NCBI GenBank assembly: GCA_028281445.1
Contig: JANQJW010000103.1
Location: forward strand, 6,488 to 70,487
Reading direction: 5' to 3'
From: Planctomycetota bacterium
GTDB taxonomy: Bacteria > Planctomycetota > PLA2 > JAEUHO01
Length of the DNA stretch: 64,000 nucleotides
Position numbers and translations under genes: made by a program
The notes under the pieces: model-generated
What the model was told of the DNA's origin: nothing
The model's input: the letters and a program-made list of their open reading frames with translations, nothing else
Databases searched by the model: none
In this document: positions 1-44,273 of the stretch, one piece after another
How positions within the stretch are numbered: the first letter of the stretch is position 1
How the letters are laid out: each line of letters opens with the position of its first letter

Positions 1-252
1 GCGTGTAGTGCGCCGAGATCACCAGCACCGCGGTCGGCTTGGCCTGCGACGTCGCCCATGCGCTCCACTCGGCGCAGCGCCCCTTGTGCAGTGCGCTCAT
101 CGGGGAGCCGTGACTCACGTAGCCGACGGGCATCGTCGCCTTGGTCTTGCTCGGCGCCTCGGCATGTGCACGCGGCTGCGGGAGGGCCGCGAGGGCCGCG
201 GCCGCCGCCCCACCGGCCAGCACGCGGCGGCGCGTCAGGTGCTACTTCTTCA
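1..252 (-). CDS. Partial (3' end outside the window) class III extradiol dioxygenase of the LigB/DODA (YgiD-like) family with a twin-arginine signal peptide. The frame starting at ATG 252 has an in-frame TAG at 241-243, and CTG at 238-240 is an alternative start.
   Basis: Minus-strand translation from 252 leftwards reads MKK*HLTRRRVLAGGAAAAALAALPQPRAHAEAPSKTKATMPVGYVSHGSPMSALHKG...TAVLVISAHYT. The RRR motif plus hydrophobic stretch plus AHA is a Tat signal. GYVSHGSPM and ISAH(W/Y) are hallmark motifs of YgiD/DODA dioxygenases. GC3 is high. The ORF runs off the window edge, so it is absent from the ORF track. Confidence 0.4.
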
Positions 253-438
253 TGATTGCGGCAGCCTATCACGCTGTGCGCCGCGGCCGCCCCATCTGGT
301 CGTCGTGCCACCAGGTTGCCGGTCGCGCAGTCCTGCGTACCCGGCTCGGTGTGATCGGCTCGCAGCGACGCTCGATTCGATGATGCTCTCCGGACTGGCC
401 CTTTCGGGGGCGCGTGTTCGGATCCATACTCTGACCGC

Positions 439-1653
439 ATGATGGCAACGATCGTCGGCGCGGGCATCTGGGAGGCGGTCTCGGCGCTCGTAGCTGTGCT
501 CGGCGCATTGTTCGCGGGGTACAAGTACTTCGCGCACCGCGAACGCATGTCGGCCGTTCGCACCGCATTTCGGGAAGTCGTTGACTCCCTTGGCGCCGAC
601 GACGACGTCCATCGTCGCGCGGGCGCCATCATGCTGCGTCGCTTCTTCGATGCAAAGACGGAGCAGGGAGGAAGCGGGACCCCGTACGCGGGGGAAGCCT
701 TGAACGTGCTCGCAGCCACGCTACGCAACATCGAGACGGGCAGCTTGCAGAAGCTACTGGCTGACGGACTGGCGTATGCCCCGACACTGCGTTCGGCCGA
801 CTTGCAGAAGACCAATCTCCAAGGTGCCTATCTCGGACGCCGTGGCGACCACTGTGTAGACCTGTCCGGAGCAGACTTCTATAGGGCAGATCTCACAGGG
901 GCCTCGCTGAAAGAAGCGACCGCACAGCGGGCTGTCTTCTACCAGGCGCGTCTGGCCAAGACGGTCATGCGTGGCGCTGATCTCACTGGAGCAAACTTCT
1001 ACGAGGCAGACCTCCTGGGGGCCAACTTCACGGGCGCGAAACTCGAAGGCGCAAGCTTCTCGCGGGCGCGGAACATCCCTGAATCGATCCGCTCCCACCT
1101 GGATGAACGCGGCACGTACGGCGTTTCCGCAAGTGAGCGAGCTCCAGAGCCTGCAGAACCGCCTGCCGTGTTCCTCAGTCGGCCCGGCGCCGCCAGCATG
1201 GATGTCCGCACGTTGGTTCGTGCGCTGAAAGATCGTCTGAAGAGTGAAGGATTCCATGTGCGCGAGATCGAACCCGTCGACTACGCAACCACCGGCGCCG
1301 TTGCCGAGGTGCGCCGGGTAATGGCGGACTGCGCCGGAATCGTCGTCGTCGCGGTGCCGGATCTCGCGATCCGTGATGCCCAGTGGCGCACGGCTACTCC
1401 TCAAGCACGCGACATCCAGGATGTCGGCCTCTGCTCCCCCTGGACGAGCCTCGAGTTAGGAGTCGGAACGGGACTGGGGCTGCCTGTCCTTCTGGCCGTC
1501 GCTGCAGGCGTGAGTACCGAGATCTTCGACTACAGCACGCACGAACCGGAGTTCTACCAGATCCCCCTCACTGAAGATCATCGTTCGCGGGCCTTCCGCG
1601 AGTGCTTCGACGATTGGTGCGGCTCCGTGCGCGAGAAGCACCGGGAGGCTTGA
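439..1653 (+). CDS. membrane-anchored pentapeptide-repeat protein with a C-terminal TIR-like (flavodoxin-fold) domain
   Basis: The 404 aa ORF has an N-terminal TM helix (GAGIWEAVSALVAVLGALFAGY). A central run of A(D/N)LxG pentapeptide repeats follows (ADLQKTNLQGAYL...ADLTGASL...ADLTGANFYEADLLGANFTGAKLEGASF). The C-terminal ~150 aa begin VFLSRPGAASMDVRTLVRALKDRLKSEGFHV...IVVVAVPDLAIRDAQW...SPWTSLELGVGTG, which matches the TIR/DUF1863 betaA-alphaA-betaB pattern. Confidence 0.7.
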   Translation: MMATIVGAGIWEAVSALVAVLGALFAGYKYFAHRERMSAVRTAFREVVDSLGADDDVHRRAGAIMLRRFFDAKTEQGGSGTPYAGEALNVLAATLRNIETGSLQKLLADGLAYAPTLRSADLQKTNLQGAYLGRRGDHCVDLSGADFYRADLTGASLKEATAQRAVFYQARLAKTVMRGADLTGANFYEADLLGANFTGAKLEGASFSRARNIPESIRSHLDERGTYGVSASERAPEPAEPPAVFLSRPGAASMDVRTLVRALKDRLKSEGFHVREIEPVDYATTGAVAEVRRVMADCAGIVVVAVPDLAIRDAQWRTATPQARDIQDVGLCSPWTSLELGVGTGLGLPVLLAVAAGVSTEIFDYSTHEPEFYQIPLTEDHRSRAFRECFDDWCGSVREKHREA

Positions 1654-5801: not shown

Positions 5802-8800
5802 CTACTCGCCTTTCGCTCCGCCGGCCTCGCGGAGGACCGGATCGTGCACCAGCGCAAGAGCGCGCGTCTCGGGCGACATCAGCTCGCAGTAGCGATCGAC
5901 GAGCGCCGCGAACTGATCCCGCGCCTCGGGCGAAGCACGCGCCCGGACGAGGGTGCATGCGGCGTAGAGCTCGTCCCGCGTCGGCATGCGCTCGCGGAAG
6001 CGCTGGAACACGTCCCAAGCCTCGTCCCACCGTTCGGCCTCGCCGCACCGCGCGAGCCCGCAGAGCGCGGCGACCTGCGCGGCGTACTCGTCGGTCTCGC
6101 AAGCCAGCGCGTACGCCCTCTCGAAGTGCTCGCGCGCTGTCTCGTTCTCGCGGGCCCCCAGCGCCAACTCACCTCGCGCCACGCGGATCGGGCAGACCAA
6201 CGACGGCGAGTGCTCCGCATCGGCTTCTGCTTCGCGGAAGTGTGGTCGAGCCGCGTCGAGCTGGCCGCGTGCCTCGGCGATGCGGGCCCGCTGCATCTGC
6301 ACCGCGGCGCGCAGCGCCCCCCCTACCGAATCGCCTCCCGACGCTTCGTCCAGGTACACCGCGGCCCGATCAAAGTCGCCGCGACGCCGGAAGAGGCGCG
6401 CGAGCAAGACGCCGACACTGGCCATGTACTCGCCATCGGTGTTTTCCTTCGCAAGCAGGTAGCCCTGCTCGAGCAGCGCCAGCCCGTCGTCCCAGGCGCC
6501 CGCCTCGGCATGGACCTCCCCCAAGCGGATCAAGCCGCGCATCTCCAGCAGCCGATCGCTGATCTGGCGCGCCAGGTCCAGGCCGCGTGCGAGGTACTCC
6601 TCCGCGCGGTCGTCCTCCCCGATCAGGCGGTACATCTGTCCCAGGGCGAGGATCGACATGCAGCGACCGCGGTCGTCGCTTTGCTCCGCGCAGATCTCGA
6701 TGTGACGACGGAACACGTCCTCGGCTTCCTCGAACCGGCGCAGGTGGGCCAGGAGGCCGCCTATGTTCCCCAGCGCACTGGAGATGCCGTACGGATCCTG
6801 GATTTCCGTTACGCGGCGCTCGTACTTGCGGAACTGCTTCAGCGCCAACGGCCAGTTGCCCTGGCGCGAATACACCATGCCGATGTTGCCGACGCCACTG
6901 GCCTCGCCCCGCGCGTAGCCCGCTTCCTTCGCCGCGACGATGACGCGTTCGAAGCCCTCGATGGCCTCGTCGAGCCGGCCGAGATACATCTGGTGCCAGC
7001 CCCACGCCGTCCAGGCGCGGCCGCGCGCCATGGGTTCGCCCGTCGCTTCGGCGACCGCGATGGCTTCCTCGACGACCCTCTCGATCTCCGCGCGCCGACC
7101 TTGCGGCTCCAAGCAGTCGCGCAAGTGCGACAGCACCTCGACGCGGCGCACGCCGGTGACTTCGTCGTGGTCGGCAAGCAGGCGCCGGAACAAGTTCGTT
7201 CCCACATCCCAGAGATTGCGCTGCCAGATCTGCTCGTACGCGCCGTCGAGGTGATCGAGCGCCGCCGCGTGCCGCGTGCCCAGGGTCAGGTGCTGGCAGA
7301 GCTCCAGTGCGTCGTGCCCCGCAGGCGCGCGATCGCCCAGCCGCGCAAGCAGCACGTCGCCGATCGCCGCGTGATACGCCTCGCGCAGCGGCTCCGACAG
7401 CTGCTCGTAGAGCGTCTCTTGCACCTGATGGTGGTCGAAGACGAACGTCGGACCCGACGCGCGCACCAACCGCTTGACCCGCTCGATCCGTCCCAGTGCC
7501 CGTAGCACGGGAATGAGCTTCTGATCCAAGGCTTGTGCGATCAGCTTGGGCTCGAAGGTGGCGCCCAGGCACGCCGCGACGTCGAGGATCTCGCGCTCTT
7601 CTTCGGACAGGTCGTCGAGGCGCGCGCGAATGACCTCGCGTACCGACGCGGGCACTTCGATCTCGAGAATCGCGCCCGAGGTCGTCCAACTGCCGTCGGC
7701 CGTCGGGACGACCTGGCGCGCTTCCTTGAGCGCACGCACGATCTCGAAGACGAAGAACGGATTGCCGTCGGACTTCTCGGCAATGCGGAAGCCAAGCTGC
7801 TCGGCGAGGCGTCGTGAACCGAACGCGTCGATCAGGAGCTCGGTCAGCTCCTTGGGGCCGAGGCGAGAGAGCTCCAGGACCGTCGAGTGATCGAGCCGTT
7901 CGAGGGCGGAGCGCCATGCCGTGGACACCCCGGGCCGCATCGTCCCCACCAGCAACAACGGCAGGTCTACCGCGGCAGCGGCGAGCGCGGCGAACAGATC
8001 CAGCCCCTCCTGGGAAGCCAGGTGCAGGTCGTCGAGCACGAGAATGGTCGGGTGGTTGGTGCTGATGGACGCGACCGCCGCAACCAACGCAGCCTGCAGG
8101 CCGCCGCCATGGAGCGGCTCGGCATCGGCAGGCGGCGCATCGCCGCGCAGGAACGCGGCAAGCGCCGGCACGAGGGCCGGGGTGTCTGCAAGGATCCGCT
8201 CGAGACGCACCTCGAGGTCTGCGCGCCCGAGGAAGTCGGCCAGTGCAGCGCGTAACGCGTTGGCACCTTGCGACGCGGTACCGATCGGGTGGCTGCCGAA
8301 AAGCAGCTGCGCATCGGGGTGCGCGACACGCAGCTGCGTGGCCGCCTCGTCGATCAGGCGCGTCTTGCCGATCCCCGCCTCCCCTTCGACGAGCAGGACC
8401 TGCCCGCGCCCTTGAGCGGCCGCCTCGAACGCAGACGCAATGCGCGCGAGCTCCCCGTCGCGGCCGTATACCGCCGTGTCGCGTGGAATCCGGATGCGGC
8501 GAAGCGGCCTGCGGGTACGGCGCTCCACGTCGCGCGCACGCTCCCGCCACCAGTCGCTCGCCTCGCCTTCGTCGAGCAGCTCGATCAACGCGGCCGCCGA
8601 GGGAATGCGCTCGTCGCGCGAGGTCTCCAGCAGCGTGTGCACGAGCTCTTCGAAGAACGCCGAGCACTGCGGGTTGACCTCACCGAGCCGGCGGAAGTTG
8701 CCCGCGACCTGCGCGCGCACCGACGACGCGACGTCGCCGGAGGGGACGGGGTGCTGCCCCGTTGCCAGCTCGTAGAGCACGAGCCCGAGGGCATAGAGGT

Positions 8801-9536
8801 CTGCGCGGGCATCGGGTGTCAGCCCCTTCCCGTCGATCTGCTCGGGCGCGCAGTACCGGATCGTCCCGATGAACTGGCCGGTCTGGGACAGACGGGCAAG
8901 GTCGTCCACCGGAAACGCCACGCCGAAGTCCATAACCTTCACCACGTGATCCGGCGTGATGAGCACGTTCTCGGGCTTCAGATCGCGGTGCACGATGCCC
9001 TGCTCACCGATCGCATGCAGGCCGCCCGCCACCTCATGCGCGATGTGGCGGCACAGGTCCTCCGGGACGCGGCCGAGCTCCTGCAGCAGCCGGTCCAGCG
9101 TCTGCCCTTCCACGTACTCCATGACCAACGCGCCGTCATCGGTCACGCCTAGTGTGCGAACCACGTTGTCGTGGATGACGCGGCGGCCAAGCGTCGCCTC
9201 GCGGGTGAACCGTTCGCGGAAGTCGTCGCGCCCGGCCAGATGCGGGTGCAGCACCTTCAGCGCGACCGACCCCTCGGGTCCTTCCGCGAGGTACACGGAT
9301 CCCATGCCCCCGACGCCGAGCAAGGAAGCGATTCGGTACACACCGAGCTGCGAGCCGGGGGGCAGGTCCACCTGGGTGCCGAGGCTCGCATCCGGGCGCT
9401 CGTGCTGGGCGAGCAGCTCCTCGACCTCGTCCCGCACTTCCGGGTCGCCCGCTAGCAAGACCTCCCGTTCGGAGCGCGGTGCCGTGCGCGCCCTCTCGAA
9501 GAGGTCGCAGATCCGCTGCCATCGATCGTCGCTCAC
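5802..9536 (-). CDS. STAND-type Ser/Thr protein kinase with an N-terminal Hanks kinase domain, a central AAA/P-loop NTPase and C-terminal TPR repeats
   Basis: Kinase motifs are GVGGMGSVYLA, VALK, HRDLKPENVL, DFG and APE. A Walker A LLVEGEAGIGKTRL follows, then about 600 aa of TPR-like repeats. The preferred start is GTG at 9534-9536, 8 nt after an AGAGAGG Shine-Dalgarno, giving MSDDRWQRICDLFERA. The track ORF start at 9629 is an alternative. The stop is TAG at 5802-5804. Confidence 0.85.
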   Translation of the reverse strand: MSDDRWQRICDLFERARTAPRSEREVLLAGDPEVRDEVEELLAQHERPDASLGTQVDLPPGSQLGVYRIASLLGVGGMGSVYLAEGPEGSVALKVLHPHLAGRDDFRERFTREATLGRRVIHDNVVRTLGVTDDGALVMEYVEGQTLDRLLQELGRVPEDLCRHIAHEVAGGLHAIGEQGIVHRDLKPENVLITPDHVVKVMDFGVAFPVDDLARLSQTGQFIGTIRYCAPEQIDGKGLTPDARADLYALGLVLYELATGQHPVPSGDVASSVRAQVAGNFRRLGEVNPQCSAFFEELVHTLLETSRDERIPSAAALIELLDEGEASDWWRERARDVERRTRRPLRRIRIPRDTAVYGRDGELARIASAFEAAAQGRGQVLLVEGEAGIGKTRLIDEAATQLRVAHPDAQLLFGSHPIGTASQGANALRAALADFLGRADLEVRLERILADTPALVPALAAFLRGDAPPADAEPLHGGGLQAALVAAVASISTNHPTILVLDDLHLASQEGLDLFAALAAAAVDLPLLLVGTMRPGVSTAWRSALERLDHSTVLELSRLGPKELTELLIDAFGSRRLAEQLGFRIAEKSDGNPFFVFEIVRALKEARQVVPTADGSWTTSGAILEIEVPASVREVIRARLDDLSEEEREILDVAACLGATFEPKLIAQALDQKLIPVLRALGRIERVKRLVRASGPTFVFDHHQVQETLYEQLSEPLREAYHAAIGDVLLARLGDRAPAGHDALELCQHLTLGTRHAAALDHLDGAYEQIWQRNLWDVGTNLFRRLLADHDEVTGVRRVEVLSHLRDCLEPQGRRAEIERVVEEAIAVAEATGEPMARGRAWTAWGWHQMYLGRLDEAIEGFERVIVAAKEAGYARGEASGVGNIGMVYSRQGNWPLALKQFRKYERRVTEIQDPYGISSALGNIGGLLAHLRRFEEAEDVFRRHIEICAEQSDDRGRCMSILALGQMYRLIGEDDRAEEYLARGLDLARQISDRLLEMRGLIRLGEVHAEAGAWDDGLALLEQGYLLAKENTDGEYMASVGVLLARLFRRRGDFDRAAVYLDEASGGDSVGGALRAAVQMQRARIAEARGQLDAARPHFREAEADAEHSPSLVCPIRVARGELALGARENETAREHFERAYALACETDEYAAQVAALCGLARCGEAERWDEAWDVFQRFRERMPTRDELYAACTLVRARASPEARDQFAALVDRYCELMSPETRALALVHDPVLREAGGAKGE

Positions 9537-17219: not shown

Positions 17220-18266
17220 CTACCTGGCCCGCGGGAGCTTCAGCGTCGAGCCGGACGCAAACACCTGTGCCTCTGCCGCGAACTGCCCCATACCGACGAC
17301 TTCCAGGTCGTACGCCGTCGCGGCCGCGACGAAGGGGAGCGACACCCAGCCTTCACGATCCGTCTTCACCGTCGGAGATCGCCAGATGCGCGTGTAGTAG
17401 TTGGGTTCCGGATGACGCCAGTCCAGCGTGACGCGGCACTCGGCCAGCGGCTTGCCGCCGGGCGAGAGGAGTCGCACCCGCATCGTCGACGGTTCAGGGA
17501 CCGTGATCCGGCCGAGCTCGCCGACCGGCTTGTCCTTGCCCATCTTCGAAGAAGGAACATCCAGTCGCACCGGTGGACGATCGGGCGCCGAAGCTACAAC
17601 CAGGTAGCTCGCCGCCTTCACGGTCGTAACCTCGAACCGGCCCTGGTCGTCCGCATCGTGTCCACTGCGGATCGCCGTGAAGGCGTCCTCCTGGTACCGA
17701 TCCTGCCGACCCCAACGTCCCAGCTCCGGCCAACGAGCGGGCACGTCGCCGTACCCGTGCGACGAGCCGCCCGGCGTGAAGGCAAAGACGTCGACGCGCG
17801 CCCCGGGCACCCCCTTGCCTTGCGCGTCGACAACATGCCCGCGGACCACACCGGTGAATGACAGCACGACGTCCTTCATCACATGCTGCGTGTTGCCTTC
17901 GCTCCCTTCCTTCCGATCCAGGACGACGGCACGAGTGGGATAGCCGGGCGCCGAAGCCGCGACACCGCGGAGCCGCAGGGTACGTCCTCGCGCTGCGCCG
18001 AGCCGATAGCGACCGTCGGCGTCCGTCGTTGCGAAGAGCATCGGCTGCCGCCCGCGCACCTTCGCGGCGACGGTGGCGCCGGCGATCGGCTTGCCCTTCT
18101 CGTCAACGACGCGACCTCGAATCCCCGGGGATTCGGAAGCCTCCTCGGCGCATGACGGCGGGGCGCACAGCAGCAGGATCAGGATGCATAGGACGGACAG
18201 GTTTCGATGTGCGGTTGTGTGGCTCCTGTTGGCCGGAGTCCAGGCCGTGCTGCGCCGGCTGCTCAT
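17220..18266 (-). CDS. secreted protein with carboxypeptidase regulatory-like (CarbopepD_reg) beta-sandwich repeats
   Basis: A signal peptide is followed by repeated IRGRVVDEKGKPIAGATVAA...TDADGRYRL and VRGHVVDAQGKGVPGARVDV...DDQGRFEV units typical of CarbopepD_reg domains. Confidence 0.65.
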   Translation of the reverse strand: MSSRRSTAWTPANRSHTTAHRNLSVLCILILLLCAPPSCAEEASESPGIRGRVVDEKGKPIAGATVAAKVRGRQPMLFATTDADGRYRLGAARGRTLRLRGVAASAPGYPTRAVVLDRKEGSEGNTQHVMKDVVLSFTGVVRGHVVDAQGKGVPGARVDVFAFTPGGSSHGYGDVPARWPELGRWGRQDRYQEDAFTAIRSGHDADDQGRFEVTTVKAASYLVVASAPDRPPVRLDVPSSKMGKDKPVGELGRITVPEPSTMRVRLLSPGGKPLAECRVTLDWRHPEPNYYTRIWRSPTVKTDREGWVSLPFVAAATAYDLEVVGMGQFAAEAQVFASGSTLKLPRAR

Positions 18267-18399: not shown

Positions 18400-21300
18400 G
18401 TGACCCAACCCGAGTCCGTCCCGCTGGAGTCGTTGCTCGCCCACACGGGCTGGGTGCGCGGGCTCGCACTCCGCGTGGCCCGCAACCGGGCCGACGCAGA
18501 CGATCTCGAGCAGGAGACCTGGCTACGGATCCTCAGGGCACCGCCCAGGCGCAGCGCAGGACTCCGCGCCTGGATCAAGGTGGTCCTCTCGAACGCATTC
18601 CGCGACACGCGCCGGTCTGAGAGCCGACGCACGTACCGCGAGGAGGCCGTTGCGAGACCCAACAGCGCTCGCTCCACCGAGGTCCTGGTTGCGGAAGCGG
18701 AACTGCACCACCGGGTCGCGAGCGAGGTGCTGCGCCTCCCGGAGCCCTACCGCTCCGTTCTCCTCCGTCGCTACTACCAGGGCCTGCCGCCTCGTTCGAT
18801 TGCCGAACGGACCGGCCTGCCGGTAGAGACGGTCCACACCCAGCTCAAGCGCGCGCGGAAGCGACTGCGCAGCGCGCTGCAGGAGCGGTCCGGTCGGGAG
18901 CAGCTCGGGACACTGGGGCTCGCGCCGGCGGCGAACGGCTGGATCTCGAAGGGAGCGATACTCGTGAGCGCGAGCACCAAGAAGTGGGCCGCCCTGTCCG
19001 GCGCAGTCCTGCTCCTGATCGGCGGCGTCGTTGCCGTGAACTCCCTGTCGTCCTCCGATGCGCCGCGCCCGCAGGAGACGCCCGGCGCGCTGCAGACATC
19101 GGCTCCCACCCTCGAGTCGAAGCCTGTTCGAAAGCGGGCTCCGGGCCCGTCGACAGAACGCGTGCCGGAGGCGCGCGTGGGGCGTCTTCACGTCCGGGTC
19201 ACCAAGGGTGAGGGCCAACCCGTAGCGGGCGCGGCCGTCAACGTGTATCCGGGCGGCTTGCGGCAGCGCATCCGTTGGCTCGATCTCGACCGCACGTACG
19301 ACGACCCGATGCCCGCGCACTCGGCCACCACCGATGTCCGCGGGGAAGCACGCTTCGACGCGCTGCGCGTCGGCGGGTGGGTCGTCGTGGCGACGAGTCC
19401 GGGCTTCGCGCCCAGCGGGGTGAGCCTGCCTCGATTCTCGGCGGACGGCGAGCTAACGATCGACCTTCGACTCGAACCGGGCGGACGCGTCGCAGGGCGC
19501 GTCTTCGATGCGGAGGGCCGCACGGTAGCCGACGCGCTCGTCATCGCCTCGCGCACTAGCCTCGGACGGTTCGGGGCGGTCGAAGTGCGCGCACGGTCGA
19601 CCAGGGAAGGCGAGTACGCCTTCGAAGACCTACCGCCCGGTGTGCTCTCGCTCGAGGTGCGCGCCCCACGTCACGCGGTCCACCGCGTAGGCTCCATCGT
19701 GGCTCCGATGGCGCGAGGCTTCGACATCCACCTTCCGCGCACGGGGCGCGTCGTAGGCCGTCTCCTCGGACCGAGCGGAGCGCCTGTGCCCGACGCGCAG
19801 GTCGAGCTCCACATGTGGGCGCGCGGCTTCGCCGAGACGAGCACGGATCACGAGGGACGCTTCGAGCTCTTCACCGAGAAGCCGATCCGCTCGGCGTTCC
19901 TGACGGCCCGCGTCCGAGGCTTCCTGCTCGATCCAGGGCAGCCCTACTACCACCTCGCTTCGGCCTACATCGGAAGCTGTCTCGACATTCCCCCACCCGC
20001 AGTCGGCGAGACGCGGCACGTGGAAATGCGATTGATCAAGGGCGCGAGGCTGCAGGGACGCGTGCTCGGACCGAACGGCCCGCTTGCCGGGGCCCGCGTA
20101 CGCGTCGTGACCATCGGAACCGAGGCGGCTGTGGGCGCCTTCGGGACCGAGACGAACGCCGAGGGGCACTACGTGCTCGAAGGTCTTCCCGCAGGCTTGC
20201 TTCTCGTGCGCGCCGAGCATGAGTCCTACACCATTCCCGGCCTTCCGCGCGACGGCGTACGCCTGCACGCGGTTCGATCCGGCGCGACGGATCCGCTCTC
20301 AGTGACACTGGGGGCGGGGGCGACGGGTCGCCTCGACATCACACTGGAGAAGGGCGCCGTCATCACGGGTCGGGTGGTGACAAGCGACGGCAAGCCGGTG
20401 GCCGGCGCATCCGTCTGGGCCGGTCAGCCAGTGGAGACTCGGGAAGTGGCCAACGCCCGTTCCGCGGCCGACGGTACGTTCACCCTGGACCCCGTCGACC
20501 TTACGCGAAAGGGCTGGGTAAGCGTCAGGCATCCCCACTTCCTTCCGCATTGCGTCGCAGTGAAAGCCTCCGACGAGAACCGCGCAGAGGTGACGCTCGA
20601 GCTGCATGCGTTCCGAGTCGCAAGAGGTCGTGTCACCTCCGAGAGCGGCGACGTGCCGGAGGGGACCGTCGTGCGGCTTGTCAGCTACGGAGCTTCGAAT
20701 CGCCAGGAGCTCTTTGGGAAGTTCGTCCACGCGCCCAAGCACGACGTGGGAGGCGACGGCTCGTTCGAGTTGCGCGTGCCCGTGCTCGAGGGTGCACTTG
20801 GCGGCCTCTGGATCCGCGCGGGCGCGCCCGGATACGCCGACGCGACTCTCGGTCCGCTCAAGGTGAAGCCCAACGAACCCATCTCTGACATCCGGATCGC
20901 CCTGGCGAGGGGTCATGACGTCGAGCTCGTCGTGACGGAACAGGGTGGCGCGCCCATTCCGGGCGCTTCCGTCGTGCTAGTGAGCTATGACGACGAGAAC
21001 AACCTCTACGAGCCGCGCGCGTATCGAGATCCCACGGACGCACACGGCTCGACCACATTGCGTGTGCTGCCGGACGGGCGGTTCTTCGCCGACGTGAGCG
21101 CCCGTGGTTTCGCACCGGCCCAGGTCGAGTGGGTCCTCCCGGGGCCCACGCGAATCGCGGTGCCCCTCGTTCGCGCCGCTCGCATCGAGGGCCGCGTTCG
21201 CGCGGAGACGGGCGCCTCACCAGCGGGTGCGCGCCTGGAGCTCTCGCCGCTTGAGGTCACACCGCGGCGCGGCCCCGGCATCCGGCCGTCGCCGACACCG

Positions 21301-21978
21301 GGGGAGGCCTTCGTCCAAGCCGACGGGCGCTTCGTCGTCGACGGGCTCGCGGCCGGCCGTTACCGAGTCGTGGTCTCACCGCCCGCGGGCTCAACCGGAC
21401 TGGGTGTCGTCACCCTCGAGTCGGTCGAAACCGGGACCCATGACCTGTCCATCACGCTCCCGGCGGCCGGGATCATCGTCGGCCGCGTGCGGGACCCGGC
21501 GGGCTATCCCGCCAAGGACGTCGTGGTCCGCGCGCTCGCCGAAGAAACGAAGTCGGGCTCCTGGAAGACGACGACGAAGCCCGACGGGACCTTCGAGATC
21601 GGCGGCCTGCGTAGCGAGCGGTTCGTCGTGCGCGTCGAGACGCCCCGCTGGGGCAAGCTGGGCGCGTTCGCGTGGATGCAACAGTCCGGCGTCGAGCCGG
21701 GTGGGTCCGAGTTGAACTTCATCCTCGTACGCGGCGCAACCATCGAAGGTCGCGTGGTTGACGGGACCGGGAAGGGGGTCCCCGGCCTTCCCATCGGAAG
21801 CCACGCGAAGTGGGTCATCACGGGGGAGAGCGGCGCCTTCGTGCTCCGCGGACTGCGGAAAGGCAAGCATCGCATTCGCGTGCAGTCCTGGGCGAACAGC
21901 ACCGGATTCCAGCGCCTGCTGGGCGCTGACGCGATCGAGGCCGGCGCACGAGGCGTCGAGCTGCGCGCAGCGCGCTAG
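18400..21978 (+). CDS. ECF sigma factor fused through a single TM helix to a ~950 aa extracytoplasmic array of about ten CarbopepD_reg-like repeats
   Basis: GTG start at 18400. Sigma regions 2 and 4 are DLEQETWLRILRA and LRLPEPYRSVLLRRYYQGLPPRSIAERTGLPVETVHTQLKRARKRL. The TM helix is WAALSGAVLLLIGGVVAVNSL. It is one uninterrupted 1192-codon frame. The stop TAG at 21976-21978 lies inside the IS target duplication and is therefore native. Confidence 0.8.
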   Translation: MTQPESVPLESLLAHTGWVRGLALRVARNRADADDLEQETWLRILRAPPRRSAGLRAWIKVVLSNAFRDTRRSESRRTYREEAVARPNSARSTEVLVAEAELHHRVASEVLRLPEPYRSVLLRRYYQGLPPRSIAERTGLPVETVHTQLKRARKRLRSALQERSGREQLGTLGLAPAANGWISKGAILVSASTKKWAALSGAVLLLIGGVVAVNSLSSSDAPRPQETPGALQTSAPTLESKPVRKRAPGPSTERVPEARVGRLHVRVTKGEGQPVAGAAVNVYPGGLRQRIRWLDLDRTYDDPMPAHSATTDVRGEARFDALRVGGWVVVATSPGFAPSGVSLPRFSADGELTIDLRLEPGGRVAGRVFDAEGRTVADALVIASRTSLGRFGAVEVRARSTREGEYAFEDLPPGVLSLEVRAPRHAVHRVGSIVAPMARGFDIHLPRTGRVVGRLLGPSGAPVPDAQVELHMWARGFAETSTDHEGRFELFTEKPIRSAFLTARVRGFLLDPGQPYYHLASAYIGSCLDIPPPAVGETRHVEMRLIKGARLQGRVLGPNGPLAGARVRVVTIGTEAAVGAFGTETNAEGHYVLEGLPAGLLLVRAEHESYTIPGLPRDGVRLHAVRSGATDPLSVTLGAGATGRLDITLEKGAVITGRVVTSDGKPVAGASVWAGQPVETREVANARSAADGTFTLDPVDLTRKGWVSVRHPHFLPHCVAVKASDENRAEVTLELHAFRVARGRVTSESGDVPEGTVVRLVSYGASNRQELFGKFVHAPKHDVGGDGSFELRVPVLEGALGGLWIRAGAPGYADATLGPLKVKPNEPISDIRIALARGHDVELVVTEQGGAPIPGASVVLVSYDDENNLYEPRAYRDPTDAHGSTTLRVLPDGRFFADVSARGFAPAQVEWVLPGPTRIAVPLVRAARIEGRVRAETGASPAGARLELSPLEVTPRRGPGIRPSPTPGEAFVQADGRFVVDGLAAGRYRVVVSPPAGSTGLGVVTLESVETGTHDLSITLPAAGIIVGRVRDPAGYPAKDVVVRALAEETKSGSWKTTTKPDGTFEIGGLRSERFVVRVETPRWGKLGAFAWMQQSGVEPGGSELNFILVRGATIEGRVVDGTGKGVPGLPIGSHAKWVITGESGAFVLRGLRKGKHRIRVQSWANSTGFQRLLGADAIEAGARGVELRAAR

Positions 21979-21979: not shown

Positions 21980-23015
21980 TCTCAGTACCGAGCACGTTGT
22001 CGACACCCGGCCGGTAGGCGTTCAAACGGGGGCTTCCCGCCGATGCCTGCGTGGGGTCGTTCGCGATTGTAGTGCTCGAGCCAAGGCCCGAGGGCCTTGG
22101 CTCGGGCTCGGTCGCTGCGGTACGGCCGTGCGTAGGCCCACTCGCGCATCAGGCTCTGGATGAAGCGCTCGGCCTTGCCGTTCGTCTGCGGCCGGCACGG
22201 CCGTGTCTTGAGATGGCGAGCTCCGAGCGCCGCACAGGCGTCCCGGAAGGCGTAGCTGCAGTACGCCGAGCCGTTGTCGGTCATCACACGCTCGACGTCC
22301 ACGCCGTGTCTCTTCAGCCAGGCCGTCGCCCGTTCCAAGAAGGCCGTCGCCGACTCCTTGCGCTCGTCGGACAGGATCTCTACGTAGGCCGCCCGGCTGT
22401 GATCGTCCACGCAAACGTGCAGGAAGTCCCAGCCCGCTCCCTGGCTGCGGCGCCGGAGCTTGCCGGTGACTCGCTTGCCCGGGCAGCGGAACCGGCCCAA
22501 CTTCTTCACGTCCAGGTGGATCAGCTCACCCGGTCGATCGCGCTCGTAGCGCACGATCGGCTCCACGGGATCCAGGTACTTGAGCTTGCCCAGGCCCAGC
22601 CGGCGCAGAACGCCGCCAACCGTGGAGATCGCCATGCCGAGTCGCTTCGCGATTGCCCACGCGGTGAGGCGCTTTCGGCGCAGTTGCTCGATGCGTCGCT
22701 GAAGCCACCGCTTCGTTCGGTTCCAGACACGACCTGGGGCCGAGCTGCGATCCTCAAGGCCGGCATGGCCCTCTTCCTCGTAGCGCCAGAGCCATTTGTA
22801 GGCCGTAGCACGGCTGATGCCCATCGCGCAGGCCGCGTCCGAGACGCGCCAGTCCTCCTTCAAAACCCTCTGCACAAGTAGCTGGCGGGTCTTCGGTGTC
22901 GTTCGAGCGTTAGCATGCAGCTTCATCCTGGGATCCTCCCGGTGACGTGGGTTTGGTTTCGCAACCTCCACGTTCCGGGATTCCCGGGATGTCTACAACC
23001 TGCTCAGCAATGACA
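21980..23015. mobile_element. IS481-family insertion sequence (IS3 superfamily), about 1036 bp, with a single transposase, imperfect ~30 bp terminal inverted repeats and a 6 bp GCTAGC target duplication
   Basis: The left end TCTCAGTACCGAGCACGTTGTCGACACCCGG (21980-22010) matches the reverse complement of the right end CCGGGATGTCTACAACCTGCTCAGCAATGACA (22984-23015) at about 23 of 31 positions. It is flanked by GCTAGC at 21974-21979 and 23016-23021, consistent with the NCTAGN target preference of IS481. Confidence 0.8.
21982..22926 (-). CDS. IS481-family DDE transposase (rve integrase core)
   Basis: The ORF is trimmed to MKLHANARTTPKTRQLLVQRV (HTH). The DDE region is HLDVKKL...MTDNGSAY...TNGKAERF. 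This is the classic IS481 transposase architecture. Confidence 0.9.
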   Translation of the reverse strand: MKLHANARTTPKTRQLLVQRVLKEDWRVSDAACAMGISRATAYKWLWRYEEEGHAGLEDRSSAPGRVWNRTKRWLQRRIEQLRRKRLTAWAIAKRLGMAISTVGGVLRRLGLGKLKYLDPVEPIVRYERDRPGELIHLDVKKLGRFRCPGKRVTGKLRRRSQGAGWDFLHVCVDDHSRAAYVEILSDERKESATAFLERATAWLKRHGVDVERVMTDNGSAYCSYAFRDACAALGARHLKTRPCRPQTNGKAERFIQSLMREWAYARPYRSDRARAKALGPWLEHYNRERPHAGIGGKPPFERLPAGCRQRARY

Positions 23016-23021
23016 GCTAGC
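23016..23021. repeat. right target-site duplication GCTAGC of the IS481-family element
   Basis: See the left copy. It overlaps the TAG stop (plus-strand cta at 23021-23023) of the convergent methyltransferase gene. Confidence 0.6.
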
Positions 23022-23683
23022 TACCGGCCTCGCCGTGCCAGCACGTACACCCGCTCGGTCGGGTACTCCGTCTCGTACGCCGGCCGTGAGGTCGCCTCGA
23101 GAATGTCGAACCCTGCCCCCTCCACGAGCGACCGCATCTCATCGAGCTCGTAGAGCGTCACCGCCATGGGCACGGGCTCGTCGAACAGCGCGTCCTGCTG
23201 GAACGTCCCGGCACCACGATGGACGGACACGAGGAGCGGTGAACCAGGCGCCAGCGCACGAGCGAACTCCGCGAGGGCGTGCGGGGCGTCTTCTCGAACG
23301 ACGTTGATGAGCGAGTAGAGCGCGACGCAGCCCCCCCACGATCCTGTGGGCACCTCGAGCTCGAGCATGTCGCCGACCTGGAACGTGGCTTCCGGAACGA
23401 GAGAGCGCCCGAGCGCCACCATCTCGTCGCAGAGATCGACGCCGCACACCTCGAGCCCCATGCCGCAGAGGTGCCTGGCCACGTGACCGGGGCCACAGCC
23501 CACGTCCGCGACGAGAGCCCCCGGCGCAACCAGCCCGGCGAAGCGCTCGAGTAACGCGCGGTCGAAGGGCTTGTCGTCCAGCTCATGGAAGAGTCGCTCG
23601 ACGTACTGGTCCGCAACGCGCCCCCACCCGCGCGCTAGCGACCGCATCGCCTCTCGATTGAGCTCCGGTTCCGGCTGGGACAT
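23021..23683 (-). CDS. class I SAM-dependent methyltransferase
   Basis: The track ORF 23021..24199 is trimmed to MSQPEPELNREAMR (CAT at 23681-23683). The SAM motif I is LVADVGCGPGHVARHL, followed by motif II/III context GVDLCDEMV. Confidence 0.8.
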   Translation of the reverse strand: MSQPEPELNREAMRSLARGWGRVADQYVERLFHELDDKPFDRALLERFAGLVAPGALVADVGCGPGHVARHLCGMGLEVCGVDLCDEMVALGRSLVPEATFQVGDMLELEVPTGSWGGCVALYSLINVVREDAPHALAEFARALAPGSPLLVSVHRGAGTFQQDALFDEPVPMAVTLYELDEMRSLVEGAGFDILEATSRPAYETEYPTERVYVLARRGR

Positions 23684-23773
23684 GGCGTCAGGGTACTGGG
23701 GCGTTCGTTCGAGATGCCTACTCTGAAACCCAGGCAGGACGGCGGCCATCATCCCGGTGTCTGGAGGAGAACC

Positions 23774-24541
23774 ATGCCCATTCGATTCCATGCCATTGCA
23801 GCCGCGTTGGTCCTCTTGCTCGCCGCATGCGGCGGGGAGAAGGCACCCGACACCAAGAACCCGGACGGGCCCACCACGCCCAGCGAGCCGGGTCCCCTCG
23901 CCAAGGCGTTGGACGCCAAGAAGGCCGCAGGCATGAAGATGATGCCTGACGAGGTGAAGGCCGTGATCGAGAAGAGCGGTAAGGAGATCGCCGCGCTCGA
24001 CCTGGAGTCCCAGGCGTTGAACGTCGGCGCGCGAGCACCGGACTTCACGCTCTCCGACGGCAACGGCGAGTCCTACGAGCTCAAGAGCCTGCTCGAAGAG
24101 GGCCCGGTTGTCCTGACCTTCTACCGCGGCAAGTGGTGACCCTACTGCGACATCGCCCTCAAGGCGTACCGGCAGGTCCTGCCGGATATCAAGAAGCACG
24201 GCGCGACGCTCGTCGCCATCTCCCCCATGACGGCCGACAGCACGCGTGAGATGCAGACCGTGCTGGAGAACGCCTATCCGATCCTGAGCGATCCCGCGAA
24301 CAAGGTGGCGCGCACCTACAAGCTCGTGTTCGCGCTGCCCGCAGACCTGCGTCCGGTCTACGCGAAGTTCGGCATCGATCTCCCCGCGGACAACGGCGAC
24401 GACACCTTCGAGCTGCCCGTGCCCGCCACGTACGTCATCAGCCAGGACGGAACGATCCGGTGGGCCGACATCGACATCGACTACACGTCTCGCGCGGAGC
24501 CGCGCGACATCCTCGCAGCACTCGCCGCGCTATCGCCGTAG
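23774..24541 (+). CDS. candidate selenoprotein: a thioredoxin-fold redoxin/Prx-like lipoprotein with TGA at 24137-24139 read as selenocysteine in a W-U-P-Y-C motif
   Basis: Track ORFs 23714..24139 and 24227..24541 are in the same frame and separated only by the TGA. Translation continues through it as ...GPVVLTFYRGKW[TGA]PYCDIALKAYRQVLPDIKKHGATLVAISPMTAD.... The likely start is ATG 23774 (MPIRFHAIAAALVLLLAACGG, lipobox) with a GGAGGAGA Shine-Dalgarno. The joined 255 aa protein matches the AhpC/TSA-redoxin fold (ARAPDFTL.D..G....L, FYRGKWCxxC, ILSD). Confidence 0.55.
24169..24185 (+). promoter_or_regulatory. candidate SECIS-like stem-loop downstream of the in-frame TGA
   Basis: CCGGCAG-GTC-CTGCCGG forms a perfect 7 bp stem with a 3 nt G/U-containing loop. 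It starts 30 nt after the TGA and the apical loop lies about 40 nt after it, slightly beyond the canonical bSECIS window. Confidence 0.3.
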
Positions 24542-24549
24542 GGCAACCG

Positions 24550-25299
24550 TCAACTGCGCAAGACGTAGAAGGCGTAGCCGTAGTAGTCGGAGTAACACTC
24601 GAAGAGGGCGATCTCGGCGGCGGTCTCCTCTGCGACCCGGAGCGCCTCCGCGTCGCCCGCATGCCGGGCGCGGAACGCATCCAGCCGCTCCCGGAGAGGA
24701 CCGTAGTACTCGCGGGTCCAGCTCGCGTCCGGTAGCGGGAACGTGCCGACTACCACCCACCCACTCGCCTCGGCGGCCGCGATGTTGGCCTCCACACTGC
24801 GCATGCCCGGATAGCCCTGCGCCCAGAAGTCGGCCAGCTCGCGGGGCGGATCCGGACGGAACCAGGACGCCTCGGACACCACGAGGTAGCCCCCAGGCGT
24901 CAGCAGCGGCCGCCACGCCGCAAGTCCGGCATCGAAACCCATGATGTAGACCGCGCCTTCGCTCCACAGCAGGTCGAACGACCCGCCCTCGAACGGCAGC
25001 GACCGCATGTCCGCGGCGTGCGGCGTCACACGGGACGCGAGCCCGCGCGCGGCAGCGCGCTCCTCGAGGGCAGCCAGCACGCCGGGGACCAGGTCCGTGG
25101 CCGTGATCCTGCCATCCGTGTTCGCGGCGAGCGTCAAGGTCTGGGCGCCGGTGCCGCACCCGATGTCGAGGATGCGTGGCTGCGGCGGCAGCTCCGTCAG
25201 TCGTAGCGCCCTGAGCGTCGACTCGTCGTCACCGGGACCGAGTCGAGCGAGTCCCGCGTGCAGCTCGACGAGCAGCTCGATGGTCCGGTCTCCCTCCAC
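24550..25299 (-). CDS. class I SAM-dependent methyltransferase
   Basis: The SAM motif is ILDIGCGTGAQTLTLA. The start is placed at GTG 25297-25299 (VEGDRTIELLVE). The upstream 70 codons of the track ORF are R/S-rich low-complexity sequence typical of an out-of-frame shadow. Confidence 0.75.
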   Translation of the reverse strand: MEGDRTIELLVELHAGLARLGPGDDESTLRALRLTELPPQPRILDIGCGTGAQTLTLAANTDGRITATDLVPGVLAALEERAAARGLASRVTPHAADMRSLPFEGGSFDLLWSEGAVYIMGFDAGLAAWRPLLTPGGYLVVSEASWFRPDPPRELADFWAQGYPGMRSVEANIAAAEASGWVVVGTFPLPDASWTREYYGPLRERLDAFRARHAGDAEALRVAEETAAEIALFECYSDYYGYAFYVLRS

Positions 25300-25306
25300 G
25301 CAGGCG

Positions 25307-25624
25307 CTACTGCCGCAAGACCGCCATGTCCCCCACGCGGATGGTGCCGCTGGTCGACTGTCCATACGGCGTACCCACGGACTGCGACTCCCGGGCCTCG
25401 TGGATGATGATCTCGCCGACGACCTTGCCATCCCTCGTGATCGGAAGCGCCTGCCCGGAGCGCACGCCGTCCTTGGTTCCGAGCGAGACCACGACGGCGC
25501 CGCTCCCACCCGCTGCGGCCAACACGCGTCCGTACTTGGGTTTCGGCTTGTCGTTGCCGCCCGACAGGCCGCTGCAAGCGGTCAGGACGATGGCAGCCAT
25601 CAGGAGCGTGATCGTGTGTCGCAT
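25307..25624 (-). CDS. small lipoprotein
   Basis: MRHTITLLMAAIVLTACSGLSGGND lipobox. 105 aa. High GC3. Confidence 0.6.
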   Translation of the reverse strand: MRHTITLLMAAIVLTACSGLSGGNDKPKPKYGRVLAAAGGSGAVVVSLGTKDGVRSGQALPITRDGKVVGEIIIHEARESQSVGTPYGQSTSGTIRVGDMAVLRQ

Positions 25625-43985: not shown

Positions 43986-44197
43986 TCTGGCCAGGGTGAC
44001 GGGACTTGCACCCGCTTCCTCCGGCTCGACAAGCCGGGATCTCGTCTCCTTCGACCTCACCCCGAGGTGCGCGCTCATGTATGGACGTCACGGAACCGCG
44101 CGCAGGCTCCATGGCGCAAAAAGGTCATTGCGGGTGGACGCGAACCACCGCCGCCCCGGCTCCGAGACGGTACGCTGGATGCTCGCCCTGAGATGGT

Positions 44198-44273
44198 TGG
44201 TTGCGGGGGAGGGAGTTGCACCCCCGACCTCTCGCGTATCAGACGAACGCTCTTCTCGCTGAGCTACCCCGCA
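44198..44273 (-). tRNA. tRNA-Ile(GAU)-like gene with atypical D and T loops (possible tRNA pseudogene or tRNA-like element)
   Basis: The reverse complement of 44197-44273 folds as a cloverleaf: a 7 bp acceptor stem (UGCGGGG/CCCCGCA) plus ACCA; a D arm GCUC-AGCGAGAA-GAGC; an anticodon arm UUCGU-CUGAUAC-GCGAG (U33, anticodon GAU, A37, two G-U pairs); and a T arm GGGGG-UGCAACU-CCCUC. It is colinear with canonical tRNA-Ile(GAU). However the D loop lacks the G18G19 doublet and the T loop is UGCAACU instead of TTCRANY. Confidence 0.4.

Follow-up and report, generated by a model that had tools for sequence, protein, structure and literature searches.

A predicted selenocysteine codon in the redox centre of a peroxiredoxin-like lipoprotein from a Planctomycetota bacterium

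The window, by which is meant the whole stretch of 64,000 nucleotides that was analysed, carries on its plus strand two open reading frames (23714..24139 and 24227..24541) that share a common frame and have only one stop codon between them, the TGA at 24137-24139. Translation therefore agrees with the preliminary description of this DNA, in which the two frames were said to be parted by that TGA alone. When they are joined from the likely start codon, the ATG at 23774, the product is 255 amino acids long and begins with MPIRFHAIAAALVLLLAA-C19-G. Its lipobox, L-A-A-C19, passes the test [LVI][ASTVI][GAS]C when read on the sequence, and LLAACG or LAGCG is found at the same place in all the orthologs discussed below. 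In public annotation the gene is cut short: the gene call P0241 is a 121-residue fragment, 100% identical to the N-terminal part of the window protein, and the earlier suspicion that gene callers miss this gene has thus proved right. The features of the locus, all on the plus strand, are these:

23763-23769 (+), Shine-Dalgarno-like sequence GGAGGAG, 4 nt 5′ of the ATG at 23774 (read directly)
23774-24541 (+), predicted selenoprotein coding sequence, 255 codons including UGA122, stop codon TAG at 24539-24541 (translation, Pfam span and homolog alignment)
23774-23830 (+), lipoprotein signal peptide MPIRFHAIAAALVLLLAA-C19 with lipobox LAAC, Cys19 codon at 23828-23830 (read directly)
24122-24193 (+), zone of synonymous-site conservation, codons -5 to +18 relative to the predicted selenocysteine (codon identity among orthologs)
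24137-24139 (+), UGA, predicted selenocysteine (Sec), residue 122, the first of U-P-Y-C (TGA in orthologs; column of an invariant Cys)
24146-24148 (+), TGC for Cys125, the putative resolving partner in the UxxC redox centre (invariant in two alignments)
24154-24166 (+), hairpin hp1, CGCC-CUCAA-GGCG, with no loop G in the window (stem kept in 7/7 orthologs, with one C.A mismatch)
24169-24185 (+), hairpin hp2, CCGGCAG-GUC-CUGCCGG, the best SECIS candidate (identical in 5/7 orthologs)

The TGA at 24137-24139 is the only one in the 64 kb with coding-like GC3 in its own frame both before and after it. Elsewhere TGA is an ordinary terminator, ending 10 of the 25 confidently identified genes of the window, so that the genetic code is standard and a reassignment of TGA can be ruled out.

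The gene is flanked on both sides by genes for SAM-dependent methyltransferases (Methyltransf_25/11) at 23021-23680 (-) and 24550-25509 (-), and an IS481-family transposase (rve, rve_3, LZ_Tnp_IS481) is encoded at 21982-22971 (-), 0.8 kb upstream. Further upstream, at 18400-21978 (+), in a protein of 1192 amino acids, an N-terminus with ECF-type sigma-70 region 2/region 4 is joined to seven CarboxypepD_reg repeats, and a related CarboxypepD_reg protein is encoded just before it at 17220-18266 (-). The window further encodes Ser/Thr kinases with TPR, CHAT, PF07638 ECF sigma factors, DUF1570 and BBP7, and the named matches of the Lhr helicase (P0121) are from Planctomycetes and Thermoanaerobaculia, at about 65% identity. 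Taken together, these genes and matches point to a bacterium of Planctomycetota- or Myxococcota-like kind. A pair of tRNA genes lies at 43991-44064 (-) and 44201-44273 (-), 136 nt apart. One is tRNA-Ile(GAU), while the second, with the anticodon loop UUGUCGA (Asp, GUC), was found by Rfam only (39.9 bits) and missed by ARAGORN. Both are unusual in that their T-loops, UGCAAC and UGCAAG, have a G in place of U55, which is universal in tRNA, and in that their D-loops do not have the usual GG.

The joined product is a coherent protein. The Pfam domain AhpC-TSA (PF00578) matches residues 84-230, across the TGA, with 100.1 bits for a cut-off of 26 (E = 1.1e-28), and Redoxin (PF08534) likewise matches; together with the lipobox, this upholds the earlier view of a lipoprotein of about 255 residues. 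With Cys put in place of the TGA for the homolog search and the alignments, more than 4800 homologs were found, most of them about 215 residues long and named “peroxiredoxin-like family protein” or “AhpC/TSA family protein.” The motif F-Y-R-G-x-W-C-P-Y-C is invariant in the homolog alignments, and the TGA stands in the column of its first Cys, where the preliminary description had placed it in the WCxxC motif of a redoxin fold. The residues 3′ of the TGA include P123, Y124, C125, L129 and A148, all intact and among those invariant in the family.

By sequence, the closest solved structures are ResA, BCP and AhpE, the top match being 4nmu (E = 2.6e-8). For P0001, the closest Cys homolog, AlphaFold produced a model (pLDDT 87.6) in which a helical hairpin at the N-terminus precedes a BCP/AhpE/ResA-like fold; in a Foldseek comparison with solved structures the model gave E-values of about 1e-11 and target-normalised TM-scores of 0.85-0.89, the best matches being BCP/PrxQ and AhpE (PDB 5epf, 3hjp, 1xvw). 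The CxxC motif lies at the N-terminus of a helix that starts at residue 123 of the model, and it is from this model, as a stand-in for the window protein, that the place of UxxC at a helix N-terminus was read.

The narrower families fit less well. The NCBIfam models of true peroxiredoxins stay below their cut-offs (BCP 32.9 vs 140, PrxQ 22.5 vs 260, PrxU 17.3 vs 270), the selenoprotein redoxin models are not reached either (SelL-related NF040769, 33.3 vs 120; WAxxUGC NF041054, 23.2 vs 300), and the ResA model gives 43 bits against a cut-off of 170. Since all these curated models are under their cut-offs, the window protein is placed among the Prx-like CxxC redoxins outside the narrower families. 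In true peroxiredoxins the peroxidatic Cys corresponds to the second Cys of the motif, and the known Sec-peroxiredoxins carry TxxU; from the motif and from what is known of the family, we take the predicted Sec of the window to stand at the Thr position of TxxU. A peroxiredoxin proper (Prx, BCP, PrxQ or PrxU) was accordingly rejected, the curated models being far under their cut-offs and the predicted Sec lying three residues before the peroxidatic-equivalent position, where the pattern of that family (TxxU or PxxxTxxC) would have it.

Does the TGA persist in other genomes? An ortholog search with only the N-terminal 121 residues as query returned, besides P0241, six further proteins of 116-127 amino acids, all of them lipoproteins and each ending in ...FYRGKW. 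At the equivalent codon, TGA is found in L133, L127/L128, L134, L135, L136 and L137, and an in-frame second AhpC-TSA fragment follows. ENA, JGI and Logan assemblies supplied the contigs (one from ENA is TARA-named), which have a GC content of 66-69%. Where they are long enough, the read-through products measure 250-258 amino acids, and their identity to the window protein is 77% for L133, 67% for L127, 62% for L135, 60% for L134, 58% for L136 and 56% for L137. The orthologs lie in different genomic contexts, because no flanking gene is common to the window and the ortholog contigs; against L127 and L136 it is only the gene itself that is shared. With no conserved neighbours in the ortholog contigs, the gene may belong to a variable region. 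The L127 contig has two SAM-dependent methyltransferases and an aquaporin 3-4 kb downstream of the gene, for which tblastx against the window region showed no similarity.

Selection acts on both sides of the codon. In seven ortholog pairs with dS of 0.5-1.3, dN/dS (Nei-Gojobori) is 0.21-0.45 3′ of the TGA and 0.28-0.73 5′ of it; being as low as or lower than upstream, the downstream values indicate that the C-terminal half is translated and selected. The preliminary description had envisaged that relatives might have TGC or TGT at this codon, or be truncated there. TGA was found instead in six orthologs, and the downstream domain continues in frame under purifying selection.

The codons around the TGA are subject to a further constraint. 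Among the orthologs, the identity of codons for the same amino acid is 0.94-0.99 in 24122-24193 versus about 0.5-0.6 elsewhere in the gene, and even the better-conserved segments of the protein (amino acid identity 0.85) have a synonymous-codon identity of about 0.6. This jump around the TGA points to an overlapping RNA element at the very place where a bacterial SECIS must be. Of the two hairpins found there, hp2 corresponds exactly to the one described earlier from the letters alone (7 bp and 3 nt at 24169-24185, 30 nt downstream): it has a 7-bp stem and the loop GUC, its stem starting 30 nt and its loop 36 nt after the UGA, and its energy is -12.3 kcal/mol. The published model of the bacterial SECIS sets the loop at 3-9 nt, the stem at 4-16 bp and the distance from UGA to loop at 16-37 nt; a G must stand among the first two loop nucleotides, usually with G or U right after it, and the energy may not be higher than -7.5 kcal/mol (PMC13188914). 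On all these criteria hp2 passes, its 36-nt spacing being at the far edge of the range. Only 1.8% of window positions have, within SECIS range, a perfect hairpin with 7 bp or more and a G in its loop. In L136 and L137 hp2 has a single A.C mismatch, at the sole variable position of the stem. As for hp1, its loop lies at the distance of the SECIS loop in other family members.

The fold itself is less clear. Over the seven orthologs RNAalifold found 0 covarying pairs, the region being nearly invariant, and it prefers an extended stem in which GACC at the UGA pairs with GGUC 35 nt downstream and UGC with GCA, hp1 being apical. In each sequence this extended stem is less stable than the two-hairpin fold by 3-4 kcal/mol. 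Folding z-scores are an unremarkable -0.2 to -1.4 for stretches of 54-81 nt and reach -2.8 for the 41-nt two-hairpin core only, and an Rfam search of 24050-24300 gave no match even at E = 10. A putative RNA element within 24122-24193 is thus much better supported than its exact fold, for which the two models compete. That hp2 is the SelB-binding element is more likely than not.

A second question is that of the closest Cys form. P0001, also a lipoprotein, is encoded at 60-821 (+) of L138 and has TGC at the Sec position, and it keeps both downstream hairpins, the first of which is stronger (CGCCGC-CCUU-GCGGCG). Because P0001 has both, the hairpins alone do not discriminate Sec from Cys. They could be either a remnant SECIS left by a Sec-to-Cys conversion or a structure that existed before, and they could be partly a by-product of the Q-V-L-P codons. 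A “remnant SECIS” has been described for Sec-to-Cys convertants (PMC1794560), and the hairpins of P0001 fit this description.

Selenocysteine is predicted in a much wider branch of the family. In a scan of genome contigs, two Desulfobacula MAGs (L001/L002) had FYRGSW-TGA-PYC, at 44% identity, with a hairpin of GGUC-type loop shortly downstream. A degenerate DNA pattern for F-Y-R-G-x-W-TGA-P-Y-C matched at least 120 metagenome loci; at all 120 of the matches listed (L005-L124) the read-through shows homology to the window protein, with 38-46% identity over some 210 residues, well beyond the TGA, in about 45 of these listed matches. Viral contigs scanned with the TGA pattern gave no match. Among the matches listed, the SECIS of the main Sec branch is uniform, with a stem of 7-9 bp from 11-14 nt after the UGA and a GGN loop at about +20, and the loops assigned to the other Sec members lie mostly 16-25 nt after the UGA. 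Among these same matches the stems vary with pairing kept, as in GCAGAGCU/GGCUCUGC, GUAGAGCU/AGCUCUAC and CUGGAGCU/AGCUCUGG. The main-branch SECIS, typically an 8-bp stem from 12 nt, overlaps N-x-E-L-x-A-L-Q codons. The window clade does not have the hairpin with a loop at +20 that is typical of the other Sec members, and its SECIS candidate has its loop at 36 nt instead.

In a crude neighbour-joining tree, drawn without bootstraps, the Sec-lipoprotein clade and P0001 fall inside the Cys forms, away from the main Sec cluster. This grouping and the different position of the SECIS suggest that an independent Cys/Sec exchange took place in the lipoprotein clade; three Cys-to-Sec events have been inferred for the family (PMC1794560). 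A more detailed scenario is put forward only tentatively, and we think it somewhat doubtful: the clade would have gained Sec independently or moved its SECIS, using a non-standard element made of tandem hairpins (loop at 36 nt) or of the extended stem, and P0001 would be a recent revertant.

The family to which the gene is assigned is well known. The Prx-like thiol:disulfide oxidoreductases (PF00578, UxxC) have been catalogued as a bacterial selenoprotein family since 2006 (PMC1794560), the GOS data contained 225 members of “Prx-like 1” with Sec and 2740 with Cys (PMC2398784), and in a review of 2026 the family still stands as “predicted with high confidence” (PMC13188914). Every testable feature of this family is found in the predicted window protein, which shares with its selenoproteins the AhpC-TSA domain, Sec as the first residue of UxxC, abundant Cys homologs and an intragenic SECIS downstream. 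By its AhpC/TSA domain and its U122-P-Y-C125 motif, the gene is therefore a predicted member, and the family named in the preliminary description is the right one. The window clade differs from the other members in its lipoprotein signal peptide and its N-terminal helical extension. Compared with the Cys proteins named “peroxiredoxin-like family protein” in cyanobacteria, Planctomycetota and Acidimicrobiia, the window protein has 43-56% identity over about 210 residues (55% for the best match of the homolog search), with an invariant FYRGxWCPYC motif and equal length and architecture, whereas they have Cys at the position of the TGA and mostly no signal peptide. The review gives cd02970 for the “peroxiredoxin-like family” and lists there a Sec variant of UxxS type (PMC13188914); the window has UxxC. 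Within the family, lipoprotein targeting, the long spacing from UGA to loop and, probably, an independent origin would be particular to the window clade.

Other systems offer partial parallels. Proteins of ResA/TlpA type (PDB 4nmu, 1st9, 2f9s) have the same fold, are membrane-tethered and extracytoplasmic, as is predicted here, and their WCKPC aligns with WUPYC. ResA differs in its low identity (about 20%), in having a membrane anchor rather than a lipobox and Cys rather than Sec, and in having no N-terminal helical hairpin. At the RNA level, hp2 resembles the SECIS elements of E. coli fdhF and of Moorella in its GC-rich stem, its small G-U loop (CAG-GUC-CUG in the window) and its location within the coding sequence 3′ of the UGA. 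The fdhF SECIS has the loop GGUC, and the minimal E. coli SECIS has about 11 nt between the UGA and the base of the stem. In the window, by contrast, there are 30 nt to the stem base, a bulged U is absent, and a further small hairpin is interposed.

From these comparisons, residue 122 is very likely selenocysteine, in a lipid-anchored, exported thiol-disulfide oxidoreductase of thioredoxin/peroxiredoxin fold. SelB-GTP with Sec-tRNA(Sec) would bind an mRNA element 3′ of the UGA, most likely the hairpin at 24169-24185 and possibly together with that at 24154-24166, and Sec would be inserted at position 122. The prolipoprotein is predicted to be exported, acylated at Cys19 and active outside the cytoplasm. 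There, Sec122 would be the attacking nucleophile and would form a selenenylsulfide with Cys125, disulfides and possibly peroxides being reduced in the CxxC manner of ResA/TlpA-type proteins, after which a membrane electron shuttle would re-reduce the protein.

Three other explanations of the TGA have to be weighed against selenocysteine. An ordinary Cys redoxin lipoprotein could have suffered a nonsense change from TGC to TGA, by mutation in a pseudogene or by sequencing error, the hairpin then being a coincidence. A single transversion would be enough, from what is the main Cys codon of the window (118 TGC vs 23 TGT); among full-length homologs the nearest has Cys and similar nucleotides downstream; the IS481 transposase is near; and neither selA, selB and selD nor tRNA-Sec (Rfam included for the latter) was found within the 64-kb window. 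All this would leave unexplained why the TGA is kept in six orthologs at dS of 0.5-1.3, from different samples and genomic contexts, why the downstream codons are under purifying selection (dN/dS < 1) with the family-invariant residues intact, and why synonymous sites are constrained right after the TGA. Nor could the contigs stem from one clonal population, which is excluded by their protein divergence of 23-44%. We consider a broken gene or a sequencing error highly improbable. A still smaller chance is given to the idea of two genes, one for a truncated lipoprotein of 121 residues and another for a separately initiated C-terminal piece of 104 residues. Gene callers do make precisely this split (P0241), and there is an ATG at 24227; the 87 nt from TGA to ATG nevertheless encode in-frame residues that are invariant in the family, the start of the second fragment varies among the orthologs (117, 107 and 108 amino acids), and the cut would run through the active site of what is one thioredoxin-fold domain.

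The TGA could also be read without Sec, with low efficiency, by a near-cognate Trp or Cys tRNA or through some other recoding signal in a lineage that has no Sec pathway; we infer that the conserved UGA-C context and the downstream structure could favour such leaky termination. Yet the site is precisely the redox Cys at which exchange of Sec and Cys is documented in the family (PMC1794560; PMC2398784), the G-U loop of the hairpin is that of SelB-binding elements, and Trp as the nucleophile of a CxxC motif would be inactive. An indirect hint that Sec is used in the lineage comes moreover from the L136 contig, on which a second redoxin gene carries TGA as the U codon of a G-U-xx-C motif. Read-through of this kind is thus very improbable, if slightly less so than a broken gene, and the selenocysteine reading is retained. 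The second gene of L136, at 8406-9014 (+), encodes a PF13911 (AhpC-TSA_2) protein called as fragments of 46 and 155 amino acids. Its in-frame TGA (8544-8546) lies in the motif LRHLG-U-VFC-RE and is directly followed by the hairpin GAGCUCG-UCUC-CGAGCUC; from these features it is a probable second selenoprotein gene. Genes for DoxX, SDR and cytochrome c surround it, and the Prx-like gene is 2 kb away.

The predicted selenoprotein makes the source organism a likely selenium user. Through it a known UxxC family gains a lipoprotein clade, and no new question is opened. The gene of the window and at least six orthologs are split in two in public annotation, and joining the parts restores a predicted exported selenoenzyme. 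For the search for such genes, the locus is a clean natural case in which synonymous-site constraint marks a SECIS displaced from the family norm, and it helps to tune predictors at long spacing; the SECIS set of L005-L124, with its compensatory stem variants, lends itself well to building a covariance model for the family's SECIS. If the tentative scenario of a non-standard element is true, P0001 would be a recent Sec-to-Cys revertant still carrying that element, and the SelB of a high-GC marine lineage would tolerate a much longer spacing between UGA and loop than the E. coli paradigm.
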